Shown: positions 7,314 to 58,635 of the stretch, piece after piece
Layout: each line of letters opens with the position of its first letter
Numbering within the stretch: position 1 is the stretch's first letter
Assembly: GCA_964426355.1 (NCBI GenBank)
Contig: CAYRRA010000001.1
Span: 1-60,616, forward strand
Direction: 5' to 3'
Source: an uncultured Anaerolineaceae bacterium
GTDB taxonomy: Bacteria > Chloroflexota > Anaerolineae > Anaerolineales > Anaerolineaceae
DNA: 60,616 nucleotides
Notes under the pieces: generated by a model
Database searches by the model: none
Told to the model about the DNA's origin: nothing
What the model saw: the letters and a program-made list of their open reading frames with translations, nothing else
Position numbers and translations under genes: made by a program

Positions 7314-9032
7314 TTACTCTTTGATATACACATCAAAGTAAGTGGTGTAACCGTTGCTGATATACAGATCATGCACACGCGGGTTGACTGCTGTGTAATA
7401 ATCCGCAGCGTACAGCGGTATGACATACGCTTCTTCAACAATAATACGTTGGGCTTCATTCAACAACGCCTGTCTTTCCCCGCTGTCAGTTTCGGTGCGA
7501 GAATTAGCCAGCAATGCATCCAGTTCAGGATTGGATATCATCCCCAGGTTTATTCCGCCGCCAATGTTGGAAGAATGGAACAAATCATACAGAATATCGG
7601 CTTCACGCGAACCCACCCCGATCAGGCTCAATTGAAAATTTCCCGCAAAGGTCTGCTCTAACAGCACTCCAACCTCCAGGGTTTGGATGATAATATGCAT
7701 ACCAAATTTATCATATTCGTTTTCGATGATTTCCAATACCTTTACCCAATCCGTAAAACCAGAGGGGACAAGCGCTGTGAAACTCAGCGGGATGCCGTCT
7801 TTCTCGTAAATCCCGTCCGCATTCTTCTCATAACCTGCCTCCAGGATCAACTCCTCGGCTTTTGCCAGGTTATAATGCTGCCCAATCTCTTCTACGCCAT
7901 CCCAATAGCCAATTTGCGTTGGCGACAAGGGTCCATACTGAACAGTACCTTTATCCTGGAGAATGATCGTCACAATTGCATCCCGGTTGATGGCATAATT
8001 CATTGCCTGCCGGATGCGGACATCATCCAATGGGGGTTGGGTCACGTTTATCAAGATTCCAGGTCCAAAACCCTGGTAGGAACCCGTAATAATCTGAAAA
8101 CCGCTTTCACTGATGCGGTCAATATCCTGTGTTTTCAAATCAAACGAGTCGATTTCACCCGCCTCCAGACCAGCCATGATTGTGTCCGGGTCGGGAATGA
8201 GACGAACCTCTATACCGTCAATATATGCCGGACCTTGATGATATCCTTGCGGCGCCCATACAAAATCGGGGTTGCGCTCCAGGAACACCGCTTCTGAGGT
8301 GTTCCATGATTTCACAATAAAGGGTCCCGTGCCTATAGGCAGGCGACCAAACTGGTCACCCAATTCCTCCACCGCAGCCTGGGGCAACGGCATAAGATAT
8401 TCCGAAGCAATATCATATAGAAAGGTAAACTTCGGTTCAATGAGCGTGATACGCAATGTATAGTCATCGATTGCCTCGAATTTTTCCACGTTTATCAGCA
8501 TGCCCCCCGCAACGGGTGATGCAATTTCCGGGTTGGTAGCGCGTTGAAAGGTATAGACATAATCCTGTGCGGTTAACGGCGTTCCATTGTGAAAAAGGAT
8601 ATCTTCACGGATCTTAAATTCGTAGACCAAACCATCTTCAGAAATCGTCCAGGATTGGGCATGATACGGCACAATTTGATTATTGTGATCCACATACAAA
8701 AGCGATCCCCCATAGAGCATACAAATCATCGCCGATGCTGACATCGCTGTTTTATGAGGATCCAGAGTATCCGGTTCCTGAATATTAACCAAGTGAAGAA
8801 CCCCTCCGGTTGGTACCTCATTTTCTACAATCTCGGTTTCAATAATTTCTTCCGGCTCATCCTCCGGTTCTTCTGTGACCACGATTTCTTCCTCAGGCGA
8901 GGAAGGAACCCCTTCAATTTCTGCGATGGGCGCCTCGTCACTTTCTGGTAAACAGGCAGACAGGAACAAAGCAGAGAAAAGCATCAAGCTCAATAGAATT
9001 GAAAAGTACCGCATGTATCTTTTTTGGTTCAT
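7314..9032 (-). CDS. ABC-type substrate-binding lipoprotein, family 5 (peptide/nickel type)
   Basis: The ORF track gives 7314..9062. I prefer the ATG at 9032 because GGAGG lies 5 nt upstream. It has a signal peptide with a lipobox (LFLSAC), an acidic linker, then a Dpp/Opp/Nik-type fold of typical length. Confidence 0.85.
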   Translation of the reverse strand: MNQKRYMRYFSILLSLMLFSALFLSACLPESDEAPIAEIEGVPSSPEEEIVVTEEPEDEPEEIIETEIVENEVPTGGVLHLVNIQEPDTLDPHKTAMSASAMICMLYGGSLLYVDHNNQIVPYHAQSWTISEDGLVYEFKIREDILFHNGTPLTAQDYVYTFQRATNPEIASPVAGGMLINVEKFEAIDDYTLRITLIEPKFTFLYDIASEYLMPLPQAAVEELGDQFGRLPIGTGPFIVKSWNTSEAVFLERNPDFVWAPQGYHQGPAYIDGIEVRLIPDPDTIMAGLEAGEIDSFDLKTQDIDRISESGFQIITGSYQGFGPGILINVTQPPLDDVRIRQAMNYAINRDAIVTIILQDKGTVQYGPLSPTQIGYWDGVEEIGQHYNLAKAEELILEAGYEKNADGIYEKDGIPLSFTALVPSGFTDWVKVLEIIENEYDKFGMHIIIQTLEVGVLLEQTFAGNFQLSLIGVGSREADILYDLFHSSNIGGGINLGMISNPELDALLANSRTETDSGERQALLNEAQRIIVEEAYVIPLYAADYYTAVNPRVHDLYISNGYTTYFDVYIKE

Positions 9033-18918: not shown

Positions 18919-19953
18919 TTATTCGAGAATATTTTCAACGACCAGGTCGCTCAGCAAACCGGAAAGGAACCGCATGGTTGAAATTGTGCGCCCGTACGGC
19001 ATACGCATCGGACCGACCACACCCAACATGCCGGTCACCATTCCGGGCATACCATAACGCGACAGCACAATCGCACATTGCCGCAGTTCATCCCACGACC
19101 CTTCACCACCAATCAGCACCTGGACACCACCAACGGTATCCGCAGCCAGTGCTTGCTGAAGTAAATCCTGAATTTGCGAGCGCTCTTCCAGCATACGAAT
19201 GGCACGGCGGGCTTCGGTGGAACCGGTAAATTCAGGCTCTTCAAGAACATTGGTCAGTCCATCCAGATACACTTCACCGGCAGCCAGCGAATTGATTTGC
19301 TCCATTTCTTTGATGATCCATCGCAGCACATCATACTCCAGACCAATGAGTTGGGACTGATAGCCTTTCAGCGTTGCAATATCCTTGCCTTGCGTCAACT
19401 GGTTAAGGTGGCGCGATGATTCCGAGAGTTGCTCCTGAGAAGTGGGCTCGTTGAGTGTTAAAATGCGTTGGTGAATCTCGCCGCCAAACATCACCAGCAC
19501 TAACAATACCTGGCGACCGCGCGTTGAAATCAGCTCAATGTGTTTTATTTTCACCTGCTCCGAATGAGGTGCAGTGACCAACGAAGCTGCTTTGGATTGA
19601 TTGGCAAGGATCGAAGCCGCCAACCGCATCCATTGCTCCACATCTTGCCGTGACTGGTAAAACTGATGACTGATCATGGAACGCGTGGAATCAGGTAAAT
19701 CGGTCTGCTGGAGCAAATTGCGCACAAAGTAACGATAGGCTTCTTCTGTGGGTTCGCGCCCGGCTGAGGTATGCGGCTGGCGCAAGTATCCCAAATCGGT
19801 CAAGGCAGCCATCTCGTTGCGTACCGTGGCTGAACTCAAATCCAACCGGTAGTTTTCCACCAGGTTCTTTGAGCCAACCGGTGAAGCCGACTGGACATGT
19901 TCGTGGATCACCAGTGTCAAAATGAGTTTTTGCCGTTCAGATAATTCACTCAT
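18919..19953 (-). CDS. hrcA: heat-inducible transcription repressor HrcA
   Basis: 344 aa with an N-terminal winged helix (LSERQKLILTLVIHEHVQSASPVGSKNL). It is the first gene of the operon, directly downstream of a CIRCE element, with GAGGAA upstream of the ATG. Confidence 0.95.
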   Translation of the reverse strand: MSELSERQKLILTLVIHEHVQSASPVGSKNLVENYRLDLSSATVRNEMAALTDLGYLRQPHTSAGREPTEEAYRYFVRNLLQQTDLPDSTRSMISHQFYQSRQDVEQWMRLAASILANQSKAASLVTAPHSEQVKIKHIELISTRGRQVLLVLVMFGGEIHQRILTLNEPTSQEQLSESSRHLNQLTQGKDIATLKGYQSQLIGLEYDVLRWIIKEMEQINSLAAGEVYLDGLTNVLEEPEFTGSTEARRAIRMLEERSQIQDLLQQALAADTVGGVQVLIGGEGSWDELRQCAIVLSRYGMPGMVTGMLGVVGPMRMPYGRTISTMRFLSGLLSDLVVENILE

Positions 19954-19969
19954 TTGCGTTCCTCAAAAT

Positions 19970-19996
19970 TTAGCACTCTAACTCCTAGAGTGCTAA
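19970..19996 (-). promoter_or_regulatory. CIRCE operator (HrcA binding site)
   Basis: TTAGCACTC-N9-GAGTGCTAA, a perfect match to the CIRCE consensus in both arms. It lies between the predicted -10 box and the hrcA start codon. Confidence 0.93.
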
Positions 19997-20009
19997 ATTA
20001 GCAAATACC

Positions 20010-20038
20010 ATCATACCATGCCTGAAGGTCATCGTCAA
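20010..20038 (-). promoter_or_regulatory. sigma-70-type promoter of the hrcA operon
   Basis: On the minus strand: TTGACG (20038-20033), a 17-nt spacer, then TATGAT (20015-20010). The predicted TSS near 20003 places CIRCE at about +8. Confidence 0.6.
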
Positions 20039-20093: not shown

Positions 20094-20240
20094 TTATCCA
20101 CAAGCGGTGGAAATTCTTTTACACATCTGTGGATAAACCTTATCCATCCCACAATCAAACCGCTTTTTTATCAACCGGTTCATCACTTACTATCCACCGA
20201 TTCTTTCAGTTTTCCACAGATTCTGGCAAAGTTTTCCACA
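20094..20240. promoter_or_regulatory. DnaA-box cluster 1 (candidate oriC element or DnaA titration/regulatory site)
   Basis: Perfect boxes: TTATCCACA at 20094-20102 and TGTGGATAA at 20128-20136. One-mismatch boxes: TTTTCCACA at 20210-20218 and 20232-20240. Weaker boxes: TTATCCATC at 20140-20148 and CTATCCACC at 20190-20198. The last three same-orientation boxes start 20 and 22 bp apart, and an AT-rich stretch follows. Confidence 0.6.
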
Positions 20241-20265
20241 GGTTGAATCAATTTTTATCTGAATT

Positions 20266-20294
20266 TTGACAAATATCACAGCCTGTGCTAAAAT
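20266..20294 (+). promoter_or_regulatory. strong sigma-70-type promoter with extended -10
   Basis: TTGACA (20266-20271), a 17-nt spacer, then TGcTAAAAT (-10 hexamer 20289-20294). The predicted TSS is about 20301. Confidence 0.6.
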
Positions 20295-20300
20295 TTCAAC

Positions 20301-20419
20301 AATGAAATTTTCCGGGTTTACCGGTAGTGATGGTAACGTGGATCAGAGCGGTATGATTTGTAGTTCAAATAGAACTTTTTTACTCCGGCTTTAGCACTCC
20401 GCCGGAGTATATTTTTTTT
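20301..20419 (+). ncRNA. candidate ~120-nt leader transcript / small RNA upstream of rnj, containing a leaderless 30-codon ORF
   Basis: Bounded by the promoter above and an intrinsic terminator. The ATG at 20302 sits at or next to the predicted TSS. It opens MKFSGFTGSDGNVDQSGMICSSNRTFLLRL, ending at TAG 20392-20394 inside the terminator loop. I recognise no known RNA family here. Confidence 0.3.
20381..20419 (+). terminator. intrinsic terminator (possible attenuator) 54 nt upstream of rnj
   Basis: A 9-bp stem TACTCCGGC / GCCGGAGTA (20381-20389 / 20401-20409) with an 11-nt loop, followed by TATTTTTTTT. Confidence 0.7.
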
Positions 20420-20472: not shown

Positions 20473-22098
20473 ATGAAACAAAAACATCCATTAAGGATCA
20501 TCCCCCTGGGGGGCTTGGGGGAAGTTGGTAAAAATATGACGGTATACGAATATGGCGATGAATCCATCATCGTCGATAGCGGGATCATGTTCCCGGAGAA
20601 TGACATGCTCGGCGTGGATTACATCATCCCCGACATGCAATATTTAACAGACAAGACATCGCGCGTCAAAGGAATCATCTTTACCCACGGACATGAAGAT
20701 CACATTGGCGCAGTCCGGCATGTATTGGACCTGGTGCAGGCACCCATTTATGCCACCCAACTAACGCGCGGATTGATTGAAGCCAAGCTGGCTCGCAACG
20801 GTGGTTTGCGCGCCGATATGCACACGATTCAATCGGGTGATAAAGTAAAGATCGGCGCATTCGAAATCGATTTCTTTCACGTATGTCATTCGATCCCGGA
20901 CGGTGTTGGGTTGGGGATTCACACACCGCAGGGACTGGTTATCCACACCGGCGATTTCAAATTCGACCAGACCCCGGTGGACGGCTGGCCCACCGATTTC
21001 TCCATGCTTGCCGAATTGTCACAAAAGGGCGTCCTGGCACTACTATCCGATTCGACCAATTCCGTACGCATCGGTTGGACGCCATCTGAAAAAGTGATTG
21101 AGCCTGCGCTCGACAACATCTTCCGCGATGCGCCTGGGCGAATCGTCGTTGCCAGCTTTGCCTCGCTGATCTCGCGCATGCAGCAGGTCGCCAACGCAGC
21201 CCAGGCACACAACCGCAAACTGGTGTTTGTGGGTACCAGCATGGTGGATAACGCAAAAATTGCCCGCAAACTGGGATATCTCAACATCGATGATTCATTG
21301 ATGGTCAGCCTGGAGCAGGCATTGAAAATGCCACCCAGCCAGGTCGTTTTGATGTGCACCGGTTCACAAGGTGAACCGTCTTCCATCCTCGGCAGGCTTT
21401 CCGAGGGGCGTTACCACCTCTTCGATATTCAAACCGGCGACACCGTCATCCTTGCCTCGCACCCCATTCCAGGCAATGAGGAGATTGTTTTCCGCACCAT
21501 CAACCGCCTGATGCGGCGCGGTGCGAACGTACTCTATGAAGAGATTGCCCCAGTCCATGTTTCGGGACACGCCAGCCAGGAAGAATTGAAGCTCATGCTC
21601 AACCTGGTGCGTCCGCAGTTCTTTGTCCCAATTCACGGTGAACTGCGCCATCTCAAACAACATGCCCGCATCGCCGAGATGGTGGGCATTCGCCACGACC
21701 ATATTGAGGTAGTAGAAAACGGTCAGGTAATTGAATTCTCTGAAGGCAAAATCTGCCTGGCTGAACGGGTTCCTGGTACGTATGTATTTGTCGAAGGAAA
21801 TGGAGTCGGGGAATTGGGTCCGGATCAAATGCAAGAGCGCGAAAAACTTTCGCAGGCAGGGATTTTAGTGGTGAACCTGGTTTTGGATGAATGGGATGGC
21901 AAAATTCGCGGAACGCCAGAAATTCACGGTATCGGCTTTAACCTGCCCCAGGACACACAGTTGCACCAGACCGTTGCGGATGCCATCCCGCGCGCCAATG
22001 GCAAGCTAAAGGAAACGATCGAAAAAGCAGTGCGCGCCCGGGTGTATGAAGAAACACATCGCCGACCCTGGGTTGATATCCACATTCACCGCATCTGA
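20473..22098 (+). CDS. rnj: ribonuclease J
   Basis: 541 aa with the metallo-beta-lactamase motif HGHEDHIG, a beta-CASP domain and a C-terminal domain. The N-terminus (LRIIPLGGLGEVGKNM) is typical of RNase J. Confidence 0.92.
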   Translation: MKQKHPLRIIPLGGLGEVGKNMTVYEYGDESIIVDSGIMFPENDMLGVDYIIPDMQYLTDKTSRVKGIIFTHGHEDHIGAVRHVLDLVQAPIYATQLTRGLIEAKLARNGGLRADMHTIQSGDKVKIGAFEIDFFHVCHSIPDGVGLGIHTPQGLVIHTGDFKFDQTPVDGWPTDFSMLAELSQKGVLALLSDSTNSVRIGWTPSEKVIEPALDNIFRDAPGRIVVASFASLISRMQQVANAAQAHNRKLVFVGTSMVDNAKIARKLGYLNIDDSLMVSLEQALKMPPSQVVLMCTGSQGEPSSILGRLSEGRYHLFDIQTGDTVILASHPIPGNEEIVFRTINRLMRRGANVLYEEIAPVHVSGHASQEELKLMLNLVRPQFFVPIHGELRHLKQHARIAEMVGIRHDHIEVVENGQVIEFSEGKICLAERVPGTYVFVEGNGVGELGPDQMQEREKLSQAGILVVNLVLDEWDGKIRGTPEIHGIGFNLPQDTQLHQTVADAIPRANGKLKETIEKAVRARVYEETHRRPWVDIHIHRI

Positions 22099-36538: not shown

Positions 36539-36559
36539 AGGTCCTCGCTATAATGTGAT

Positions 36560-36573
36560 GTTTCACGTGAAAC
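36560..36573. promoter_or_regulatory. perfect palindrome GTTTCACGTGAAAC (candidate GntR/YtrA operator)
   Basis: A 14-nt perfect palindrome located 22 nt upstream of the ABC ATPase start codon. Confidence 0.45.
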
Positions 36574-36634
36574 TCGGGTTGATACATACCTGTGTCATTT
36601 CTCATCGGTTTGCTTGAAAAGAAAACGCGGGCAA

Positions 36635-36652
36635 TTGTTTCATGTGAAACAA
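36635..36652. promoter_or_regulatory. palindrome TTGTTTCA-TG-TGAAACAA (candidate GntR/YtrA operator)
   Basis: Shares the GTTTCA-N2-TGAAAC core with the first palindrome. It lies in the same 146-nt spacer between the gntR-like gene and the ABC genes. Confidence 0.45.
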
Positions 36653-36684: not shown

Positions 36685-37086
36685 TTAACTCTTAAACATT
36701 TCTTTTATTTGAGTGCGAAAAGCACGTTCGACCTCTTCAACACTGAAATGCAAATGGCTTGTTTCGGCAAGATACCGGGAGGTCAGTTCACCCAGCACCT
36801 CTTCACGTAGCAAGTCATGGGCTTCTTCATTATTCAGCACGTACGTGCCCCTGCCTTGTTGTGTCGTAATCAATCCAGAGCGATCCAATACGCGGTAAGC
36901 TCTCGCAACCGTATTGAAATTGATCGCCAGTTCAGCCGCCAGCTGCCGCACAGTCGGTAACTGTGCTCCCGCTCGTATATCACCGCTTAATATTCGGCTT
37001 TGAATTTCTAACACAATTTGCAAATAGGCAGGTGTGGCTGACTGAAGGTCAATTTCTACCGGTCTAAAATCTTTCCTTTTGTGCAT
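36685..37086 (-). CDS. GntR family transcriptional regulator, YtrA-like (short)
   Basis: 133 aa with a winged HTH (PTVRQLAAELAINFNTVARAYRVL) and a short C-terminal region. The gene order regulator, ABC ATPase, ABC-2 permease is typical of the YtrA subfamily. Confidence 0.88.
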   Translation of the reverse strand: MHKRKDFRPVEIDLQSATPAYLQIVLEIQSRILSGDIRAGAQLPTVRQLAAELAINFNTVARAYRVLDRSGLITTQQGRGTYVLNNEEAHDLLREEVLGELTSRYLAETSHLHFSVEEVERAFRTQIKEMFKS

Positions 37087-41686: not shown

Positions 41687-42451
41687 ATGAGCTTTGATAT
41701 GATGCCTTCATCAGCAAATGAACCTTTCGATAAAGCAGCTCAGTTGGGCGTGCCCTCTTTGGTCTGGCGCGCCGGACAGGAACGCCGTTGGGAAATGATC
41801 CGCCAGGCAGCCGGCGAACGTTTGAGTGGTGTGGTTTTTGAGGATGGCGCTGGCGTTGGGATGTACCTGGAACGCATGGCAGCCACCGCTGCACAGGCTG
41901 TTGGGCTGGAAGTGGAGATGGATCGTGCCCAACAGACCCATGAACGCATCGATCAGATCGTATGCGGGGTAGGAGAAACCCTGCCTTTCCCCGACAAACT
42001 CTTTGACCTGATTCTCAGCCATGAAGTCATCGAGCATGTGCAGGATGATCAACTGGTAGTCAATGAGATGGTGCGCACCTTACGACCCGGAGGGAGACTG
42101 ACTCTCTTTTGCCCCAACCGCGGTTACCCCTTTGAAACACATGGCATTTACTGGAAGGGGCAGTATCATTTTGGTAACAAACCGTTTGTAAATTACCTGC
42201 CGCGCCGCTGGCGGAACCGGTTGGCGCCGCATGTGCGAGTTTACTCTCGTTCCGACCTGGAAAAACTATTCAAAGGGCTGCCGGTGCGCTTCATTCAGCG
42301 AACCATCATCTTTGGCGCTTACGACAATATCATCGCCCGCAGACCCGGGTTGGGACGTTTGCTTCGAACGCTTCTGCAGGCATTGGAAAAAACACCTCTG
42401 CGAGTGTTGGGGCTTTCGCATTTTTGGGTTGTAGAGAAAATCGCTTCATAA
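41687..42451 (+). CDS. class I SAM-dependent methyltransferase
   Basis: I prefer the ATG at 41687, because the track start 41600 overlaps the kinase. Motif I is FEDGAGVGMY and the post-I/II blocks are DLILSHEVIEHV and LRPGGRL. Confidence 0.8.
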   Translation: MSFDMMPSSANEPFDKAAQLGVPSLVWRAGQERRWEMIRQAAGERLSGVVFEDGAGVGMYLERMAATAAQAVGLEVEMDRAQQTHERIDQIVCGVGETLPFPDKLFDLILSHEVIEHVQDDQLVVNEMVRTLRPGGRLTLFCPNRGYPFETHGIYWKGQYHFGNKPFVNYLPRRWRNRLAPHVRVYSRSDLEKLFKGLPVRFIQRTIIFGAYDNIIARRPGLGRLLRTLLQALEKTPLRVLGLSHFWVVEKIAS

Positions 42452-42502
42452 CAAGACGATTCGCTTCATTGACAATCCCACCCGCCTGCGGTATCCTTAC
42501 AC

Positions 42503-42612
42503 TGCGCCCGGGTGGGACCGGCGCGGCGGAACCCTACGAACCCCGTCAGGTCCGAGAGGAAGCAGCGGTAAGAAGGTACTTCCGGGCGCCGCCGGCAAAC
42601 CTACCCGGCGCA
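42503..42612 (+). ncRNA. ffs: signal recognition particle RNA (small bacterial 4.5S type)
   Basis: Contains the universally conserved domain IV sequence GUCAGGUCC-GAGA-GGAAGCAGC, a GNRA tetraloop flanked by the symmetric-loop sequences. For comparison, E. coli 4.5S has GUCAGGUCCGGAAGGAAGCAGC. The 5' segment UGCGCCCGGGUGGGACCGGCG... pairs with the 3' segment ...CGCCGCCGG..CCUACCCGGCGCA to form the long helix 5, and a U-rich tail follows. The ends are approximate. Confidence 0.85.
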
Positions 42613-42633
42613 TCTTTATTTCCGGTACACGCT

Positions 42634-43527
42634 ATGACAGACACACCCCCCATTTGCAATTACGAAGGCTCAGATTACCAGGAAACCTTCTGGGAAACTG
42701 GCGGTCGTGCTTACGAAGATGCCGCTGAATGCATTGCCCTCAAACGCCTCTTGCCGGCAAGCGGCGGACACCTGGTAGAACTGGGGGCGGGTGCAGGGCG
42801 AAACACCCCCCGCTATTGTGGTTTTCAAGCTATCACCCTGGTGGATTATTCGCTCACGCAGCTTCAGCAGGCAAAAAAGCGCTTATCCGAAAGCCACCCA
42901 GGGCAGGCTTACCGCTACGTGGCTGCCGATATCTACCGGCTGCCCTTCGTTTCCGGGCTGTTCGATGCCGCCACCATGATCCGCACACTTCATCACATGA
43001 GCGAACCACAGCGCGCCCTAAAGCAAGTCCGGAACGTCTTGCGACCGGGTTCTGTTTTTATCCTGGAGTTCGCCAATAAACGCAACTTAAAATCGGTGCT
43101 GCGCTATCTGCTGCGCCGCCAGGATTGGAACCCCTTTTCGCTCGAACCGGTGGAATTTGTAAAGCTGAATTTCGATTTTCACCCGCAGGCGGTTCGTAAC
43201 TGGCTGGGTGAAAATGGTTTCCTTCTGGAGCGCCAGCTTACGGTTTCTCACTTCCGCATCGGGTTGCTCAAGCGATTACTGCCATTGAAATTGCTGTTGT
43301 GGATGGATTCGATGGCGCAGCTTACCGGCGGGTTTTGGCAGTACTCTCCCAGTGTTTTTACACGCAGCCGTACCACCCAGGAAGGACTGACCAGCCTGCC
43401 GGGTGCGTTTTTCGCATGTCCGTTTTGCAGCGCACCTATTGAAGACACGCCGCCTTTGTTGTCCTGCCCCGGCTGCGGCAAAAAATACCCTGTTGAGGAT
43501 GGCATCTACGATTTTAGAGGGGCATAA
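42634..43527 (+). CDS. class I SAM-dependent methyltransferase with C-terminal Trm112-like zinc ribbon
   Basis: The real start is most likely ATG 42634 (MTDTPPICNYEG); the 70 codons the track puts upstream cover the SRP RNA. Motif I is VELGAGAGRNT. The C-terminus is CPFCSAP...CPGCGKKYPVEDGIYDF. Confidence 0.8.
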   Translation: MTDTPPICNYEGSDYQETFWETGGRAYEDAAECIALKRLLPASGGHLVELGAGAGRNTPRYCGFQAITLVDYSLTQLQQAKKRLSESHPGQAYRYVAADIYRLPFVSGLFDAATMIRTLHHMSEPQRALKQVRNVLRPGSVFILEFANKRNLKSVLRYLLRRQDWNPFSLEPVEFVKLNFDFHPQAVRNWLGENGFLLERQLTVSHFRIGLLKRLLPLKLLLWMDSMAQLTGGFWQYSPSVFTRSRTTQEGLTSLPGAFFACPFCSAPIEDTPPLLSCPGCGKKYPVEDGIYDFRGA

Positions 43528-49452: not shown

Positions 49453-50097
49453 ATGTATTTTGCGGTTGAAGGTGTAATCGGTGTTGGTAAAACAACCCTG
49501 GCACGAATGCTACAAAAAAATTTCAATGCGGGGATGCTGTTGGAGGTCTTTGAAGAGAATCCTTTTCTGAGCGATTTTTATGAAAACCGTGAGCGATATG
49601 CCTTTCAGACTCAAATTTTTTTCCTGCTCAGCCGCTATCAACAGCAACGACACGGCGTAACCATGCTTTTAAACGAATATGAAACGTTAATCAGCGATTA
49701 CACTTTTGAAAAAGACGCATTATTTGCCCGGATCAACCTGAAGGGAGACGAACTGGATGTGTATTACCGCGTTCACCAGGCACTGGCAGAAAAAACAGTG
49801 AGCCCGGATTTGATTGTTTATTTGCGCGCCAATACCGAAGTGCTCATGCAGCGAATCGCCCAGCGTGATCGTCCTTTTGAACGACAAATGGATCGGGATT
49901 ACATACACTTACTCAACCAGGCGTATGATGAGTATTTTCTAAACGAGAAACAATCCTCCCCGGTACTGGTCATCGATACCAATCAACGTGATTTTGTCCG
50001 TTATGAAAATGATCTTGCCTATATTGAAATGCGTATCCGTCAGTCATTGCAGATGGCGCCCTTCCAACCAGAACTGCCCATTTCGGATCGCACATAA
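49453..50097 (+). CDS. deoxynucleoside kinase (dCK/dGK family)
   Basis: 214 aa with the P-loop EGVIGVGKTT, an ERY/DY substrate region and a DR lid motif (QRDRPFE). Confidence 0.88.
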   Translation: MYFAVEGVIGVGKTTLARMLQKNFNAGMLLEVFEENPFLSDFYENRERYAFQTQIFFLLSRYQQQRHGVTMLLNEYETLISDYTFEKDALFARINLKGDELDVYYRVHQALAEKTVSPDLIVYLRANTEVLMQRIAQRDRPFERQMDRDYIHLLNQAYDEYFLNEKQSSPVLVIDTNQRDFVRYENDLAYIEMRIRQSLQMAPFQPELPISDRT

Positions 50098-50168: not shown

Positions 50169-51173
50169 ATGAGGATCACCCGCGACTCACTAATCCAAAC
50201 CGCACGGCAGGTGGTTGCCCAACAGGTACGTAAAAACCGGCATTTAGTCAGCGTATACCTGACTGGTTCACTTCTTCATGATGAGCCTTTGCTGGGTAGA
50301 ACAACCGATATCGATCTTTTCTTTATCCATGATAGCGAACCGCCGATGGAACGTGAAGTCATCAGTATGTCAGATGAAGTTCATGTAGATATCGCTCACC
50401 TCTCGCAAAGCATCTTCCGTCAACCAAGAGAGTTGCGATCAGACCCCTGGATTGCACCTTTTTTGTGCGCCAACCCCATTTGCCTGCATGATACACAGCA
50501 TTGGTTTGAATTCACCCAGGCGAGTGTTTGTGCGCAGTATGGGCGGTCTGATTACATCTTACAACGCTCTCGCAGCCTGGCGGACGAAGCGCGTCAACTT
50601 TGGATGGATATCAAAACCGGCATGGTCGAAAGCCACAGCCAGCAGGTGAACCATTATTTAAAGGCGCTGGAACGTTCTGCCAATGCCATAGCTGTACTCA
50701 CCGATATTCCCTTGACCGAAAGACGGCTGTTACTGCAGTATCCCAGCCGGACTGCTGCAATTGGGCGAGAGGATTTATCCGCTGGATTTGTTGACCTGAT
50801 TATTCAGCAGGCAATTCCTCAAGATACATGGGAAACCTGGTTAGAGCAGTGGGAAGCTGCCTTTATTGCAGCCGGAAGCATTGAAAACCCTCCGGCACGG
50901 CTGCATCCCTGCCGGGTGATTTATTACAAGAGTGCAGCCCAGGTAATGCGGGAAGATTCTCCGCCTGCTGCCCTCTGGTCGATTCTTCGCACATGGACTG
51001 CCGCCGTAGCCGCACTGCCTGAAAAAAACGTCCATCAAGAGGCATGGAACACTGCTTTAGAGTTTCTCGGCTTGGATATCCACCCCTCTGGGGTATCCAT
51101 CCGCGCATTGGATAGTTACCTGGACAATATTGAAGAAACGATTGATCTTTGGGCGCAAAAGATGGGTCAGTGA
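50169..51173 (+). CDS. hypothetical protein with Pol-beta-type nucleotidyltransferase-like N-terminus
   Basis: 334 aa. The segment TGSLLHDEPLLGRTTDIDLFFI fits the G-S ... D-x-D minimal NTase pattern. The rest of the protein is helical. Confidence 0.5.
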   Translation: MRITRDSLIQTARQVVAQQVRKNRHLVSVYLTGSLLHDEPLLGRTTDIDLFFIHDSEPPMEREVISMSDEVHVDIAHLSQSIFRQPRELRSDPWIAPFLCANPICLHDTQHWFEFTQASVCAQYGRSDYILQRSRSLADEARQLWMDIKTGMVESHSQQVNHYLKALERSANAIAVLTDIPLTERRLLLQYPSRTAAIGREDLSAGFVDLIIQQAIPQDTWETWLEQWEAAFIAAGSIENPPARLHPCRVIYYKSAAQVMREDSPPAALWSILRTWTAAVAALPEKNVHQEAWNTALEFLGLDIHPSGVSIRALDSYLDNIEETIDLWAQKMGQ

Positions 51174-51189
51174 TTAATGCACTTAAAAC

Positions 51190-51506
51190 TGTGGAAAAAC
51201 CTCATATAATTGTGGAAAACCAGGAAAAAGTGTGGAGAAATACCTTAATTCTGTGTACTCAACAAAAAATTAGCGTAATTTAATCCCCCCATATCTGGGG
51301 AGAATCCCAGGCAGATAGACATATATGCAAGGGGGTAAAAAAGAGTTCTTTTTTTGCTAATTAATCCCCGACTTTTGCCAGGTTATCCACAAACCGATTC
51401 GGGAAAACTTTTATCCCAAAAACTTGAAGATGTGGGGGCAAAAAAAGCGCCAGTGCCAGATATAGGGCTATTTTTTGTCCCAAAAAGCCTTATCCACATT
51501 TCCACA
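51190..51506. promoter_or_regulatory. DnaA-box cluster 2 (candidate oriC element or DnaA titration/regulatory site)
   Basis: Reverse-orientation boxes: TGTGGAAAA at 51190-51198 and 51211-51219, and TGTGGAGAA at 51231-51239, with starts 21 and 20 bp apart. Perfect boxes: TTATCCACA at 51383-51391 and 51490-51498. Weaker boxes: ATTTCCACA at 51498-51506 and TTATCCCAA at 51411-51419. All lie within a 529-bp spacer with AT-rich flanks. Confidence 0.6.
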
Positions 51507-51616
51507 GACTCTACTACGATTACGATTCAATTCTCCTTAATTAATATGGGGAAAGATGATTCATTAATGACTCTGCGGAAACTTTTTTTCACTGTTTGAA
51601 GTCTTTTCAGGGGGTA

Positions 51617-51702: not shown

Positions 51703-51963
51703 ATGGAAATCATAAAAGTTAAAGCGAACTCCCGCACTGCAGCTGTGGCGGGGGCAATTGCCGGGGTAATCCGAGAGCATAAACATGCTGAGGTTCAGGC
51801 AATTGGTGCCGGTGCTGTCAACCAGGCAGTGAAGGCGATGGTGCTTGCAAAAGGGTATCTTGAGGAGGAAGATATTTTCATTGCAGCCGTCCCGGAATTT
51901 GTCGATGTTGAGATCGATGGGAAAGTACGCACAGCGGTTAAGCTGGTGATTGAACCTAAATAA
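51703..51963 (+). CDS. spoVS: stage V sporulation protein S family protein
   Basis: 86 aa with full-length resemblance to SpoVS (MEIIKVKANSRTAAVAGAIAGVIREHKHAEVQAIGAGAVNQAVKA...). Confidence 0.9.
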   Translation: MEIIKVKANSRTAAVAGAIAGVIREHKHAEVQAIGAGAVNQAVKAMVLAKGYLEEEDIFIAAVPEFVDVEIDGKVRTAVKLVIEPK

Positions 51964-52068: not shown

Positions 52069-52725
52069 TCAGAGACTCATGATTTCACCAGGATCAAAGA
52101 CAACATCTTCTTTCCCAGACAACTTTTCTTGCACTTTTGAGAGAATTAAATCCAGGTGAGGTGGATGTGCTACGTAATCGAGATCGTCTGCCGGAATAAT
52201 GAGCTTGGGACAAAGGGTAAAATGATCAATCCACTCTTCGTAAAGATGGTTCAGGTGTTCAAGGTATGTCGGGCTGATTGATTTCTCGTAATCACGGCTG
52301 CGTTTGGAGATTCTTTTACTCAGCGTACCCACGGACGCACGTAAATAGATGACTAGGTCGGGTACTGTAAGAGATTTACATAAGGTGTGATAAAGCGTTT
52401 GATAGGTCTGGTAATCTCGCTCCTGGAAATACCCCTGTAGATATAGGTTACGGGCAAAAATTTCTGCATCCTCGTAAATACTGCGGTCCTGTATGGTGGA
52501 TTGCGGGGTGAAGGACAAATCCTGATGGATACGCAGACGGTGGATGAGGAAAAAAATCTGTGAATGAAAGCTCCATCCAGACATGTCCTGATAAAAATCA
52601 GAAAGATACGGATTTTGTGCCTCTGGTTCGTAAAAAGGATCCCACCCCAGTTTTTCGCTGAGCAGTTTTACCAAAGTGGATTTACCAACACCGATATTCC
52701 CTGCTACGGTGATAAACTTTTTCAT
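52069..52725 (-). CDS. deoxynucleoside kinase (dCK/dGK family), second paralog
   Basis: 218 aa with the P-loop AGNIGVGKST, QDRSIYED, and a lid region (KRSRDYE). Confidence 0.88.
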   Translation of the reverse strand: MKKFITVAGNIGVGKSTLVKLLSEKLGWDPFYEPEAQNPYLSDFYQDMSGWSFHSQIFFLIHRLRIHQDLSFTPQSTIQDRSIYEDAEIFARNLYLQGYFQERDYQTYQTLYHTLCKSLTVPDLVIYLRASVGTLSKRISKRSRDYEKSISPTYLEHLNHLYEEWIDHFTLCPKLIIPADDLDYVAHPPHLDLILSKVQEKLSGKEDVVFDPGEIMSL

Positions 52726-56333: not shown

Positions 56334-56915
56334 GTGACAGAGTTATGGTTGGTAAGGCATGGGCAGACTGATTGGAACCGGGAGGGACGTTTTCAGGGCA
56401 GCGTAGACATTGCCTTGAATGAAAATGGGTTGGGACAAGCCAGAGAAATTGCAGAGCGTTTGAAAGAGGTTAAATTTCAGGCTATTTATAGCAGCCCGCT
56501 CCAGCGTGCCCGGCAAACAGCACAAATGATCGCTGAAAAAAACGGAAAGAAAGTCCATTTTGACAGCCGTCTGTCTGAGATTTCTATGGGTGAATGGGAA
56601 GGAATGCTCTACCAGGATATCTGTCGGGAATACCCTGAAGAAATCAATGAGCGCCGCGTCAATCCGTTATATGCGCGCGCTCCTGGCGGTGAAACCGCCG
56701 TGCAGGTTGCTGAACGGATGAAACAAGCTGTCGATGAAATTGTGTTGAAGCATCCTCACGGTCCGGTGCTGATTGTTTCGCATGGGTTGGCGTTGTCTGC
56801 CCTGGTCTGTCTGGTGCGTGGCGGTTCGCTGGAAAATGTGTATAACGCAGTTTTAGAAAATGCTGCGCCAGTCGTTGTACAATGGAAGTATGACGGTGAA
56901 GGCAAAGATGACTGA
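56334..56915 (+). CDS. histidine phosphatase family protein (candidate glucosyl-3-phosphoglycerate phosphatase)
   Basis: 193 aa with a GTG start after GGAGGG. It has the RHG motif LVRHGQTDWN and a second His context (VSHGLAL). Confidence 0.8.
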   Translation: MTELWLVRHGQTDWNREGRFQGSVDIALNENGLGQAREIAERLKEVKFQAIYSSPLQRARQTAQMIAEKNGKKVHFDSRLSEISMGEWEGMLYQDICREYPEEINERRVNPLYARAPGGETAVQVAERMKQAVDEIVLKHPHGPVLIVSHGLALSALVCLVRGGSLENVYNAVLENAAPVVVQWKYDGEGKDD

Positions 56916-58635
56916 ATGCCACTGTTCGGACCCACGATTTATATTGGAATTGCTTTACGGCGAACAAATCGGAAGGCAAACAGCTTCGCTGCTTGAAGAA
57001 CGGATAAATCGTTTTACCCCGCTTGCTGCCCCTCCTCCACTGGATCAAGGAGATGCGATTCTCATTGCCTATGCCGACCAGTTTCAACGGCAGGGTGAGC
57101 TTCCGTTGCGTACGTTCTATCATTTTGCCCAAAAGCATCTCAAAGGTGTTTTGTCTGGGTTGCACCTGCTCCCTTTCTTTCCTTATTCTTCAGATGACGG
57201 CTTTTCTGTGATCGATTATCGCAAAGTGAAACCGGAATGGGGCAATTGGGAGGATATCAAGCGTTTAGGCGCTGATTTCCGGCTGATGTTCGATCTCGTT
57301 CTTAACCACGTTTCCTCCCAAAGCGATTGGTTCCAGTCTTTTCTCAAAGGAGACGAGCAGTATCAGGATTATTTCATCAGCCTGCCCCCGGATGCAGACC
57401 TGTCAGCGGTTATGCGCCCGCGCACATCTCCTTTGATGCATCGGTTTGACACGGCTGCCGGACCTCGCTGGGTGTGGACAACTTTCAGTGCGGATCAGGT
57501 GGACCTCAACTATCAAAATCCACAGGTTTTGCTGGAAACTGTGGATAACGTGTTATTTTATGTGGAAAACTGTGCAAAACTAATCCGTTTGGATGCCGTT
57601 GCATACCTGTGGAAAGAGGTTGGAACTGCCTGTATTCACCATCCCAAAACGTATCTTTTAGTTAATCTCCTTAATGCGATACTCAAGAAAACCGCTCCGT
57701 ATGTACAACTGGTCACGGAGACCAATGTGCCTCATTCCGAAAATGTTTCATACTTTGGCAATGGTTTCAATGCTGCCCATCTGGTGAATAACTTTGCCCT
57801 GCCTCCGCTTGTGTTGCACGCGATTCAGACTGGCAATACCAGTGTGTTAAACCAATGGGCATCCGAACTGACCTTGCCATCCACCCAGGTCAGTTATTTC
57901 AATTTCCTGGATTCGCATGATGGAATCGGTCTGCGTCCGCTGCAGGGAATTCTGAGCGATCGAGAGATCAATGAGATGGTGGAACAGGGGATAAAACACG
58001 GCGGGTTGGTTTCAAGCAGAAGCAGCCAGGACGGCAGCCAGAGCCTATACGAGTTGAATATTTCATTTTTTGATGCGTTGACCGACCCGGCATCTCACGA
58101 ACCGTTTGACCTGTCCGTCAGGCGTTTCCTTGCAGCTCAGGCAGTGATGCTTTCATTGGTTGGCTTGCCTGGGGTTTATGTACACAGCCTTTTTGGCACA
58201 TCCAACTGGCAGGACGGCGTGAAGCAGACCGGGCAGAATCGCAGTATCAACCGGCGGAAATTTGCTGCTGACGAACTGATGATAACTTTGTCCGACCCAG
58301 GCAGCCGCCAGAGCCGGGTCTTTGCGGGCTGCCGCCAGCTTTTGTTAGCCCGAAAGAAGTCTCCTGCTTTTCACCCACATGGTGCGCAGCTCGTTATGGA
58401 ACTGAACAGGCAAGTCTTTTCTATCCTGCGCATTTCGCCCGATGGGTTGCAAGTTGTACTTTGTTTGCATAATTTATCTGCGCAAAGACAGGAAGTTGAC
58501 TTCAAAAAATCGCACGGTTTGAACAGCGGAACCTGGCGTGATCTATTTTCAAATGCCTGCGTGGACCTTTCTGTGGATCAAATCGTTTTGGATGGATATC
58601 AGGTGTTATGGTTGGCTCCAGAAAATGGATTCTAA
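56908..58635 (+). CDS. GH13 subfamily 18 sucrose-phosphorylase-like enzyme (candidate glucosylglycerate phosphorylase)
   Basis: The ATG at 56908 overlaps the upstream stop by 8 nt; the track starts at 56860. GH13 catalytic regions are present: LVLNHVS, RLDAVAYLWK (nucleophile Asp), TETNVPH (acid/base Glu), FLDSHDGIGL. Confidence 0.8.
   Translation: MTECHCSDPRFILELLYGEQIGRQTASLLEERINRFTPLAAPPPLDQGDAILIAYADQFQRQGELPLRTFYHFAQKHLKGVLSGLHLLPFFPYSSDDGFSVIDYRKVKPEWGNWEDIKRLGADFRLMFDLVLNHVSSQSDWFQSFLKGDEQYQDYFISLPPDADLSAVMRPRTSPLMHRFDTAAGPRWVWTTFSADQVDLNYQNPQVLLETVDNVLFYVENCAKLIRLDAVAYLWKEVGTACIHHPKTYLLVNLLNAILKKTAPYVQLVTETNVPHSENVSYFGNGFNAAHLVNNFALPPLVLHAIQTGNTSVLNQWASELTLPSTQVSYFNFLDSHDGIGLRPLQGILSDREINEMVEQGIKHGGLVSSRSSQDGSQSLYELNISFFDALTDPASHEPFDLSVRRFLAAQAVMLSLVGLPGVYVHSLFGTSNWQDGVKQTGQNRSINRRKFAADELMITLSDPGSRQSRVFAGCRQLLLARKKSPAFHPHGAQLVMELNRQVFSILRISPDGLQVVLCLHNLSAQRQEVDFKKSHGLNSGTWRDLFSNACVDLSVDQIVLDGYQVLWLAPENGF

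Follow-up and report, generated by a model that had tools for sequence, protein, structure and literature searches.

A candidate non-origin DnaA-box cluster at a rearrangement junction between hrcA-dnaK and rnj in an uncultured Anaerolineaceae bacterium

The spacer between the hrcA-grpE-dnaK-dnaJ operon and rnj of an uncultured Anaerolineaceae bacterium contains a dense group of DnaA boxes, designated array 1. Within the stretch of 60,616 nucleotides that was analysed (the window), we consider it reasonably probable that array 1 is a DnaA-box cluster close to the origin but not itself an origin, that it is limited to one species, and that it fills the rearrangement junction between hrcA-dnaK and the rnj leader. 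An earlier note on this DNA had proposed that the spacer was a replication origin or a DnaA sink. The origin part had to be given up in view of the GC skew, the DnaA-trios, the conservation and a second box cluster, array 2, while the sink part fits everything that was seen and is plausible.

Motif scans placed seven boxes in 147 bp (20094-20240). Two of them are perfect: TTATCCACA at 20094-20102 on the plus strand and the same 9-mer, read on the minus strand, at 20128-20136. An inverted-repeat search returned these two as an inverted pair 25 bp apart. Two further boxes on the plus strand, TTTTCCACA(G) at 20210-20218 and 20232-20240, carry one mismatch and lie within a 15-nt direct repeat, AGTTTTCCACAG(A/G)TT, the copies of which are 22 bp apart. 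The plus-strand box TTTTACACA at 20117-20125 fits the relaxed consensus TTWTNCACA. The remaining two of the seven are weak plus-strand boxes with two mismatches each, namely TTATCCATC at 20140-20148, which has both mismatches within the CACA end and probably a low affinity, and CTATCCACC at 20190-20198. The latter is the first box of a triple (20190, 20210 and 20232) on one strand with starts 20 and 22 bp apart, and this spacing and common orientation are as the earlier note had described them. The six boxes listed there (20094, 20128, 20140, 20190, 20210 and 20232) were all recovered, and the box at 20117 was added.

The number of boxes in the window departs strongly from chance. Seven perfect boxes were counted against 0.50 expected, where the earlier note had found at least five by eye against a calculated 0.5 or so. 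With up to one mismatch allowed, the count was 38 against 13.6 expected; neither count was matched by any shuffle. Three clusters of boxes are prominent, array 1 at 20.1 kb, array 2 at 51.2-51.5 kb and array 3 at 57.5 kb. When clusters were scored per 300 bp with 2 for a perfect and 1 for a one-mismatch box, array 1 reached a score of 6. When the window was simulated 300 times with a first-order Markov model, its best cluster scored 1.8 on average and in no case more than 4. In 4.45 Mb of related Anaerolineae DNA, 300-bp segments scoring at least 5 occurred at only three loci. The boxes of array 1 are real and non-random.

Both flanks of the spacer carry predicted promoters. The gene context given earlier was correct, with the hrcA operon running leftward (hrcA at 18919-19953, minus strand) and rnj rightward (20473-22098, plus strand). 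A conserved control region at 19970-20038 on the minus strand comprises a predicted hrcA promoter (TTGACG-17-TATGAT, 20038-20010) and an inverted repeat at 19970-19996, the CIRCE operator TTAGCACTC-N9-GAGTGCTAA. This region was conserved in L001, L002 and L242, and by its predicted elements the left flank is a standard HrcA regulon control region. In L001 and L002, the closest relatives, the similarity upstream of hrcA stops right before box 1 (20094). On the right, a predicted promoter for the rnj leader (TTGACA-17-TGCTAAAAT, 20266-20294, plus strand) matches 11 of 12 consensus positions and has an extended -10 element. The same promoter precedes rnj in 37 of 46 related loci, in most of them together with the terminator. 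The 40-bp stretch at 20241-20280, previously called AT-rich by eye, indeed contains 75% A+T, a value equalled by just 0.7% of the 40-mers of the window; on the right it runs into this promoter, taking in the -35 hexamer (20266-20271) and the first part of the promoter spacer.

The rnj promoter is followed by a conserved 5' leader of about 120 nt (20300-20419, plus strand), which ends in an intrinsic terminator or attenuator with a hairpin at 20381-20409 and a T8 run at 20412-20419; the rnj ATG at 20473 lies 54 nt past this run. Most of the 46 Anaerolineae rnj loci compared have the leader. Many relatives have a 5' hairpin GGCCGG..CCGGCC, and the terminator has the form CCCCGG...GGGG plus T-run. 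The leader may act as an attenuator or an autoregulatory leader for RNase J. An Rfam search of the spacer, including the leader, gave no match at the gathering threshold or at E<=1. RNAalifold on 18 leaders recovered the terminator stem alone, because the MAFFT alignment of the leaders was poor. The terminator loop (20390-20399) holds TTTAGCACTC, which is identical to the left CIRCE arm at 19969-19978; this match is no more than a half-site, is missing from L081 and L082, and is compatible with chance. A 30-codon open reading frame, MKFSGFTGSDGNVDQSGMICSSNRTFLLRL (20303-20395), begins at the predicted start of the leader transcript, so that it would be leaderless, and has its stop codon within the terminator loop. 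It is probably no real leader peptide, because it is not conserved in L081 or L082.

The boxes of array 1 thus lie just upstream of predicted, conserved promoters, at 27-170 bp from the predicted -35 elements of the two. This position raises the alternative that array 1 is mainly a transcriptional control site, at which DnaA bound to the triple, the inverted pair or both would activate or repress the rnj or hrcA operons. The three boxes of the triple are centred some 65, 87 and 107 bp upstream of the predicted start of the strong, conserved rnj-leader promoter, and boxes lie some 95 to 141 bp upstream of the predicted hrcA start. DnaA is also known to act as a transcription factor where boxes cluster upstream of promoters (PMC3245932; PMC13438810). 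However, the -35 and -10 elements are free of boxes, and no relative examined has boxes at either promoter, so neither operon needs control by DnaA across the family. We regard a mainly transcriptional role as unlikely, though it deserves to be taken seriously. If it were true, the supply of RNase J or of chaperones would be tied to the replication status, and titration of DnaA would be incidental.

All boxes of array 1 are contained in a lineage-specific junction segment of about 170 bp (20094-20265), and nothing corresponding to it was seen in relatives, either upstream of hrcA or upstream of rnj. The nearest genomes are those of uncultured Anaerolineaceae (Chloroflexota), with MAG bin.298 as the best match (83% identical in HrcA, 78% in RNase J and 74% in PcrA). 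No box cluster was found within 600 bp upstream of hrcA in 78 related Anaerolineae loci or within 800 bp upstream of rnj in 80 such loci, and hrcA and rnj were adjacent in none of the related genomes examined. We concluded from these results that array 1 is lineage-specific and sits at a synteny breakpoint. A scan of 80 further hrcA loci from metagenome contigs also returned no cluster, and a metagenome relative with 80% HrcA identity had no box in the 225 bp of upstream sequence. The same junction, with boxes identical to those of the window, was present in the independent Logan assembly L161, so it is no artefact from the assembly of a single contig; apart from an 8-bp indel within the 5' UTR of rnj, the two spacers were the same. 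Sequencing run ERR13624440 contains the junction. Scans of the hrcA and rnj loci revealed no closer relative with the junction besides L161. Being confined to one species (window and L161), array 1 could be a recent neutral insertion. In L082, an element of roughly 100 bp (…CCAGGTGCCGGGTGATAAATCACCCGGCCAGACAACCG.ACCTCATCAATGAGGT…) occurs twice upstream of the rnj promoter, at 8400-8760, and the region upstream of rnj seems particularly prone to insertions and rearrangements.

A turn of the GC skew from negative to positive has the polarity of an origin. Beside array 1 the skew was negative on either side, at -0.081 for the left 8 kb and -0.066 for the right 8 kb. The cumulative skew fell steadily from 1 to about 40 kb, was flat from 40 to 52 kb and rose from 52 kb to the end. 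An orientation-corrected fit per gene placed the switch at 44.5-47.5 kb, the best change point overall being at 44.5-48 kb, and the residual sum of squares for GC3 was 1015 for a switch at 20 kb compared to 596 for the best switch. The check by GC skew that had been suggested for the spacer therefore showed no change of polarity at 20 kb, with the turn at about 44.5-52 kb instead. The suggested search for DnaA-trios was equally negative, as no CTA-type trio adjoins any box of array 1. The sole trio-like pattern there, ATT TTT ATC, starts 10 bp past the last box and, as a minimal NTN x3 pattern, is at chance level in AT-rich DNA. Array 1 has no tandem boxes and lacks the oriC consensus of the lineage (tandem boxes, GC-rich spacer, CTACTACTATTACGA). 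In the window the motif CTACTAC is limited to 51511, in array 2, and the interior of rnj. The absence of dnaA from the window was borne out by a search in six frames, which gave no DnaA signature motif.

The features of an origin were found in array 2 (51190-51530), upstream of spoVS (51703-51963). Array 2 comprises a phased triple on the minus strand (51190, 51211 and 51231), a middle box at 51383 and tandem boxes on the plus strand at 51490 and 51498. The trios CTA CTA CGA TTA CGA TTC start 12 bp past the first tandem box and are followed by AT-rich DNA. A basal unwinding system (BUS) consists of a box, often in tandem, a spacer of at most 16 bp and at least three trios 3'-NAN-5', mostly 3'-GAT-5', which read 5'-CTA-3' downstream of 5'-TTATCCACA-3' (PMC8287927). 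Array 2 looks like a Bacillus-type BUS that matches this definition. It lies at the right edge of the zone of the skew switch, about 31 kb from array 1, and the skew was -0.003 in the 8 kb to its left versus +0.099 to its right (up to 8 kb); the window extends just 9 kb beyond it, and the genes at 47-51 kb have a skew near zero.

Array 2 is also conserved in position. In MAG bin.298 the boxes are retained at the same place while the spacers have diverged, and the cumulative skew at this locus has its minimum beside the array. The counterpart in L162 is at 8009-8324. Of 75 Anaerolineales loci in a scan anchored on SpoVS, 41 had a strong box cluster upstream of spoVS, always at the same offset; the loci without a cluster are probably paralogous spoVS copies. 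The triple on the minus strand, with 20 and 21 bp spacing, was present at 37 of 38 spoVS-linked loci, and its first box is the most degenerate of the three. Beyond the triple these loci have, with very little variation in the box map, one to three middle boxes and then the tandem pair on the plus strand, followed by a short GC-rich spacer, CTA CTA CTA TTA CGA TTC, AT-rich DNA and CTTGAAT. The trio motif shared by L322-L401, L162 and the window reads CTACTAC(T/G)ATTACGATTC. The pooled GC skew within 6 kb on either side of 40 spoVS-linked clusters was equivocal, being negative on the left and mixed on the right, where it became positive by 5-6 kb. From the conservation, the match to the BUS and the turn of the skew we infer that array 2 is probably the oriC of this genome.

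The surroundings of array 2 are conserved as well, with spoVS as the constant neighbour of the oriC-type module. Two paralogous deoxynucleoside-kinase genes (Pfam dNK; 49453-50097 and 52069-52725) flank array 2 on opposite strands, and an open reading frame for 334 amino acids (50169-51173) had no match in Pfam or NCBIfam. This reading frame and the left dNK gene are syntenic with oriC in many relatives, and the order dNK, 334-aa reading frame, oriC, spoVS is kept in about 20 loci. Neither dnaA nor dnaN was found beside the conserved cluster in the two annotated loci, L361 and L385. As an alternative anchor for oriC, pcrA was tried and rejected, since it was usable only for the closest relative L162 and synteny was lost elsewhere.

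These results bear directly on the possibility that array 1 serves as the origin of the chromosome, as an additional origin or as half of a bipartite one. Its dense boxes are followed by 75% A+T DNA, and the pattern past the last box formally satisfies the minimal rule for trios (PMC8287927). However, the skew is negative on either side of array 1 and a switch at 20 kb fits poorly, tandem boxes and CTA-type trios are missing, and the AT-rich stretch overlaps the conserved promoter of the rnj leader. Array 1 was found in none of 158 related loci; array 2, by contrast, is kept throughout the order and has a canonical BUS. With 31 kb separating them, the two arrays are also much farther apart than the clusters of known bipartite origins, where a single gene lies between two clusters. 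As the chromosomal origin, array 1 was rejected on the skew, the test for a BUS and the lack of conservation in the 158 loci, and an origin function of any of these kinds is highly improbable. Among the features of an oriC, array 1 shows the box cluster, but it has no CTA-type trios, no skew switch and no conserved position.

Despite these differences, the phased triple of array 1 shows some likeness to the oriC triples. Along the strand of the boxes the order runs from weak to strong, as in the oriC triple, and both TTTTCCACA boxes are followed by G, which is also the case there. The second spacer and the 3' flank, CACAGGTTGAATCAAT, resemble the consensus of the family (compare CACAGATTGAATCAAA in the oriC of L343). 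When the non-box positions were scored against a profile of 36 oriC triples, array 1 obtained -1.44, compared to -21 +/- 8.5 for the null (P ~0.011). The window's own oriC triple in array 2 scored -4.36 on the same profile, below array 1. The likeness is modest and is partly due to the extended box consensus CACAG. A direct homology between arrays 1 and 2 was rejected, as their spacers were on inspection no more alike than chance. The resemblance suggests either descent from an oriC fragment or shared constraints on the assembly of DnaA, and it is proof of neither. Array 1 lacks the tandem boxes, the DnaA-trios and the unwinding module of the conserved Anaerolineales oriC. A more far-reaching version, which we rate as improbable, is that array 1 is a partial paralogue of oriC, whose three-box module was captured without the unwinding module between the promoters of the dnaK operon and rnj and might serve as a 'decoy origin'. 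In this case initiation would be buffered, and the expression of chaperones, RNase J or both would be tied to the status of DnaA; array 1 would then be a recent example of non-origin DnaA control loci that arise from oriC itself.

The same likeness can be read as the trace of a neutral relic, that is, an oriC-like fragment (a partial three-box duplicate) left at the junction, which may bind DnaA and is not under selection. Besides the build of the triple, the exact position at a synteny breakpoint in one species only agrees with this explanation, and secondary clusters appear to turn over between relatives. On the other hand, two perfect and two one-mismatch boxes are intact and their phasing is preserved, and similar clusters in B. 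subtilis measurably affected initiation in experiments (PMC3245932). We consider a relic quite doubtful.

Several other elements of the window and its relatives were recorded. L162 has a mini-cluster of two boxes that is missing from the window. Array 3 (57473-57579, minus strand; TTGTCCACA at 57473, TTATCCACA at 57540, TTTTCCACA at 57561 and TTTTGCACA at 57571) is located within the coding sequence of a sucrose-phosphorylase-like gene (56860-58635). The candidate oriC lies 6 kb to its left, and no counterpart was evident at the matching place in L162. Near pcrA in relatives, the only other strong clusters were at 16435-16529 in L230 and at 2217-2248 in L203. The cluster of L230, a Longilinea MAG, contains TTATCCACA(A/T)TTCTCCACAG twice and a third perfect box; it may be another non-origin cluster, because the skew rises steadily throughout the locus. 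In L203, three boxes adjoin AT-rich DNA near a local minimum of the skew. Two palindromes of the window (36559-36574 and 36636-36651), 77 bp apart and each one mismatch away from the parS consensus TGTTTCACGTGAAACA, lie between a gene for a regulator of the GntR family (36685-37086) and an ABC-transporter operon, and could be parS sites of the origin region or GntR operators. The SRP RNA gene at 42510-42609 (Rfam RF00169, 58.7 bits) overlaps the 5' end of a methyltransferase reading frame (42424-43527), the true start of which is probably downstream of the RNA.

The gamma-proteobacterial locus datA acts together with IHF and through a specific geometry of its boxes. At datA and DARS, which have been described in gamma-proteobacteria, the box geometry and sites for IHF or Fis drive the hydrolysis of DnaA-ATP or the release of ADP. 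Array 1 resembles datA of E. coli, which lowers the initiation potential once it is duplicated, in having predicted high-affinity boxes near the origin; unlike at datA, an IHF-type arrangement was not evident. E. coli datA has been described as a titration locus (PMC3245932).

The closest known counterparts are the six non-origin DnaA-box clusters of B. subtilis. These are intergenic, lie for the most part close to oriC, control the genes beside them and hold initiation back; their deletion leads to early initiation (PMC3245932). Like these clusters, array 1 is intergenic, consists of several consensus or near-consensus boxes, and is located by promoters outside but near the candidate oriC, the distance of about 31 kb to the origin holding if array 2 is oriC. 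By analogy, array 1 would be expected to bind DnaA, to affect its neighbours and to restrain initiation. It differs from the B. subtilis clusters in belonging to a member of the Chloroflexota (Anaerolineaceae), in occurring in one species, in being known here from its sequence alone, and in that its right half mimics the three-box module of the oriC of its own lineage. In the oriCII region of P. aeruginosa, upstream of gidA, binding of DnaA was demonstrated by EMSA, and bound DnaA regulates the gidAB-parAB promoter (PMC13438810). Array 1 is likewise a second, oriC-like cluster near the probable origin and, like that region, is not known to serve as an origin itself; unlike oriCII, for which experimental data on DnaA exist, it is a junction element of one species by rnj and hrcA that was recognized from its letters. 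Its boxes have the same consensus as those of origins of the BUS type (PMC8287927), and its same-strand boxes show the two-turn phasing of the oriC of its own lineage. In contrast to such origins, it has no tandem boxes, no GAT-type trios, no skew switch and no positional conservation, all of which array 2 has.

We therefore return to a non-origin DnaA-box cluster near the origin as the preferred reading. DnaA would bind the two perfect boxes tightly and would spread cooperatively across the phased triple. Since array 1 is 31 kb from the candidate oriC, it would be replicated early and its copy number would double soon after initiation. By analogy with the clusters near oriC in B. subtilis, the duplicated array would then soak up DnaA, away from oriC, and re-initiation would be damped. 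Bound DnaA would probably also modulate one or both of the divergent promoters, because the boxes are close to the starts of the rnj leader and hrcA.

By itself, array 1 is an expected kind of element and unsurprising to specialists. The more notable by-product of the analysis is a conserved module across the Anaerolineales that is not linked to dnaA in the loci examined, carries a Bacillus-like unwinding module and is very probably oriC. In the literature searched we found no published account of an Anaerolineales oriC upstream of spoVS, origin databases such as DoriC being outside the scope of the search, and no work on replication control in Chloroflexota. For annotation, the results mean that the origin of this Anaerolineaceae genome should not be placed at the spacer between hrcA and rnj. 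Array 1 is instead a candidate non-origin DnaA-box cluster in Chloroflexota, and as a young, oriC-like element at a rearrangement junction it could show how loci that titrate DnaA or are regulated by it originate.
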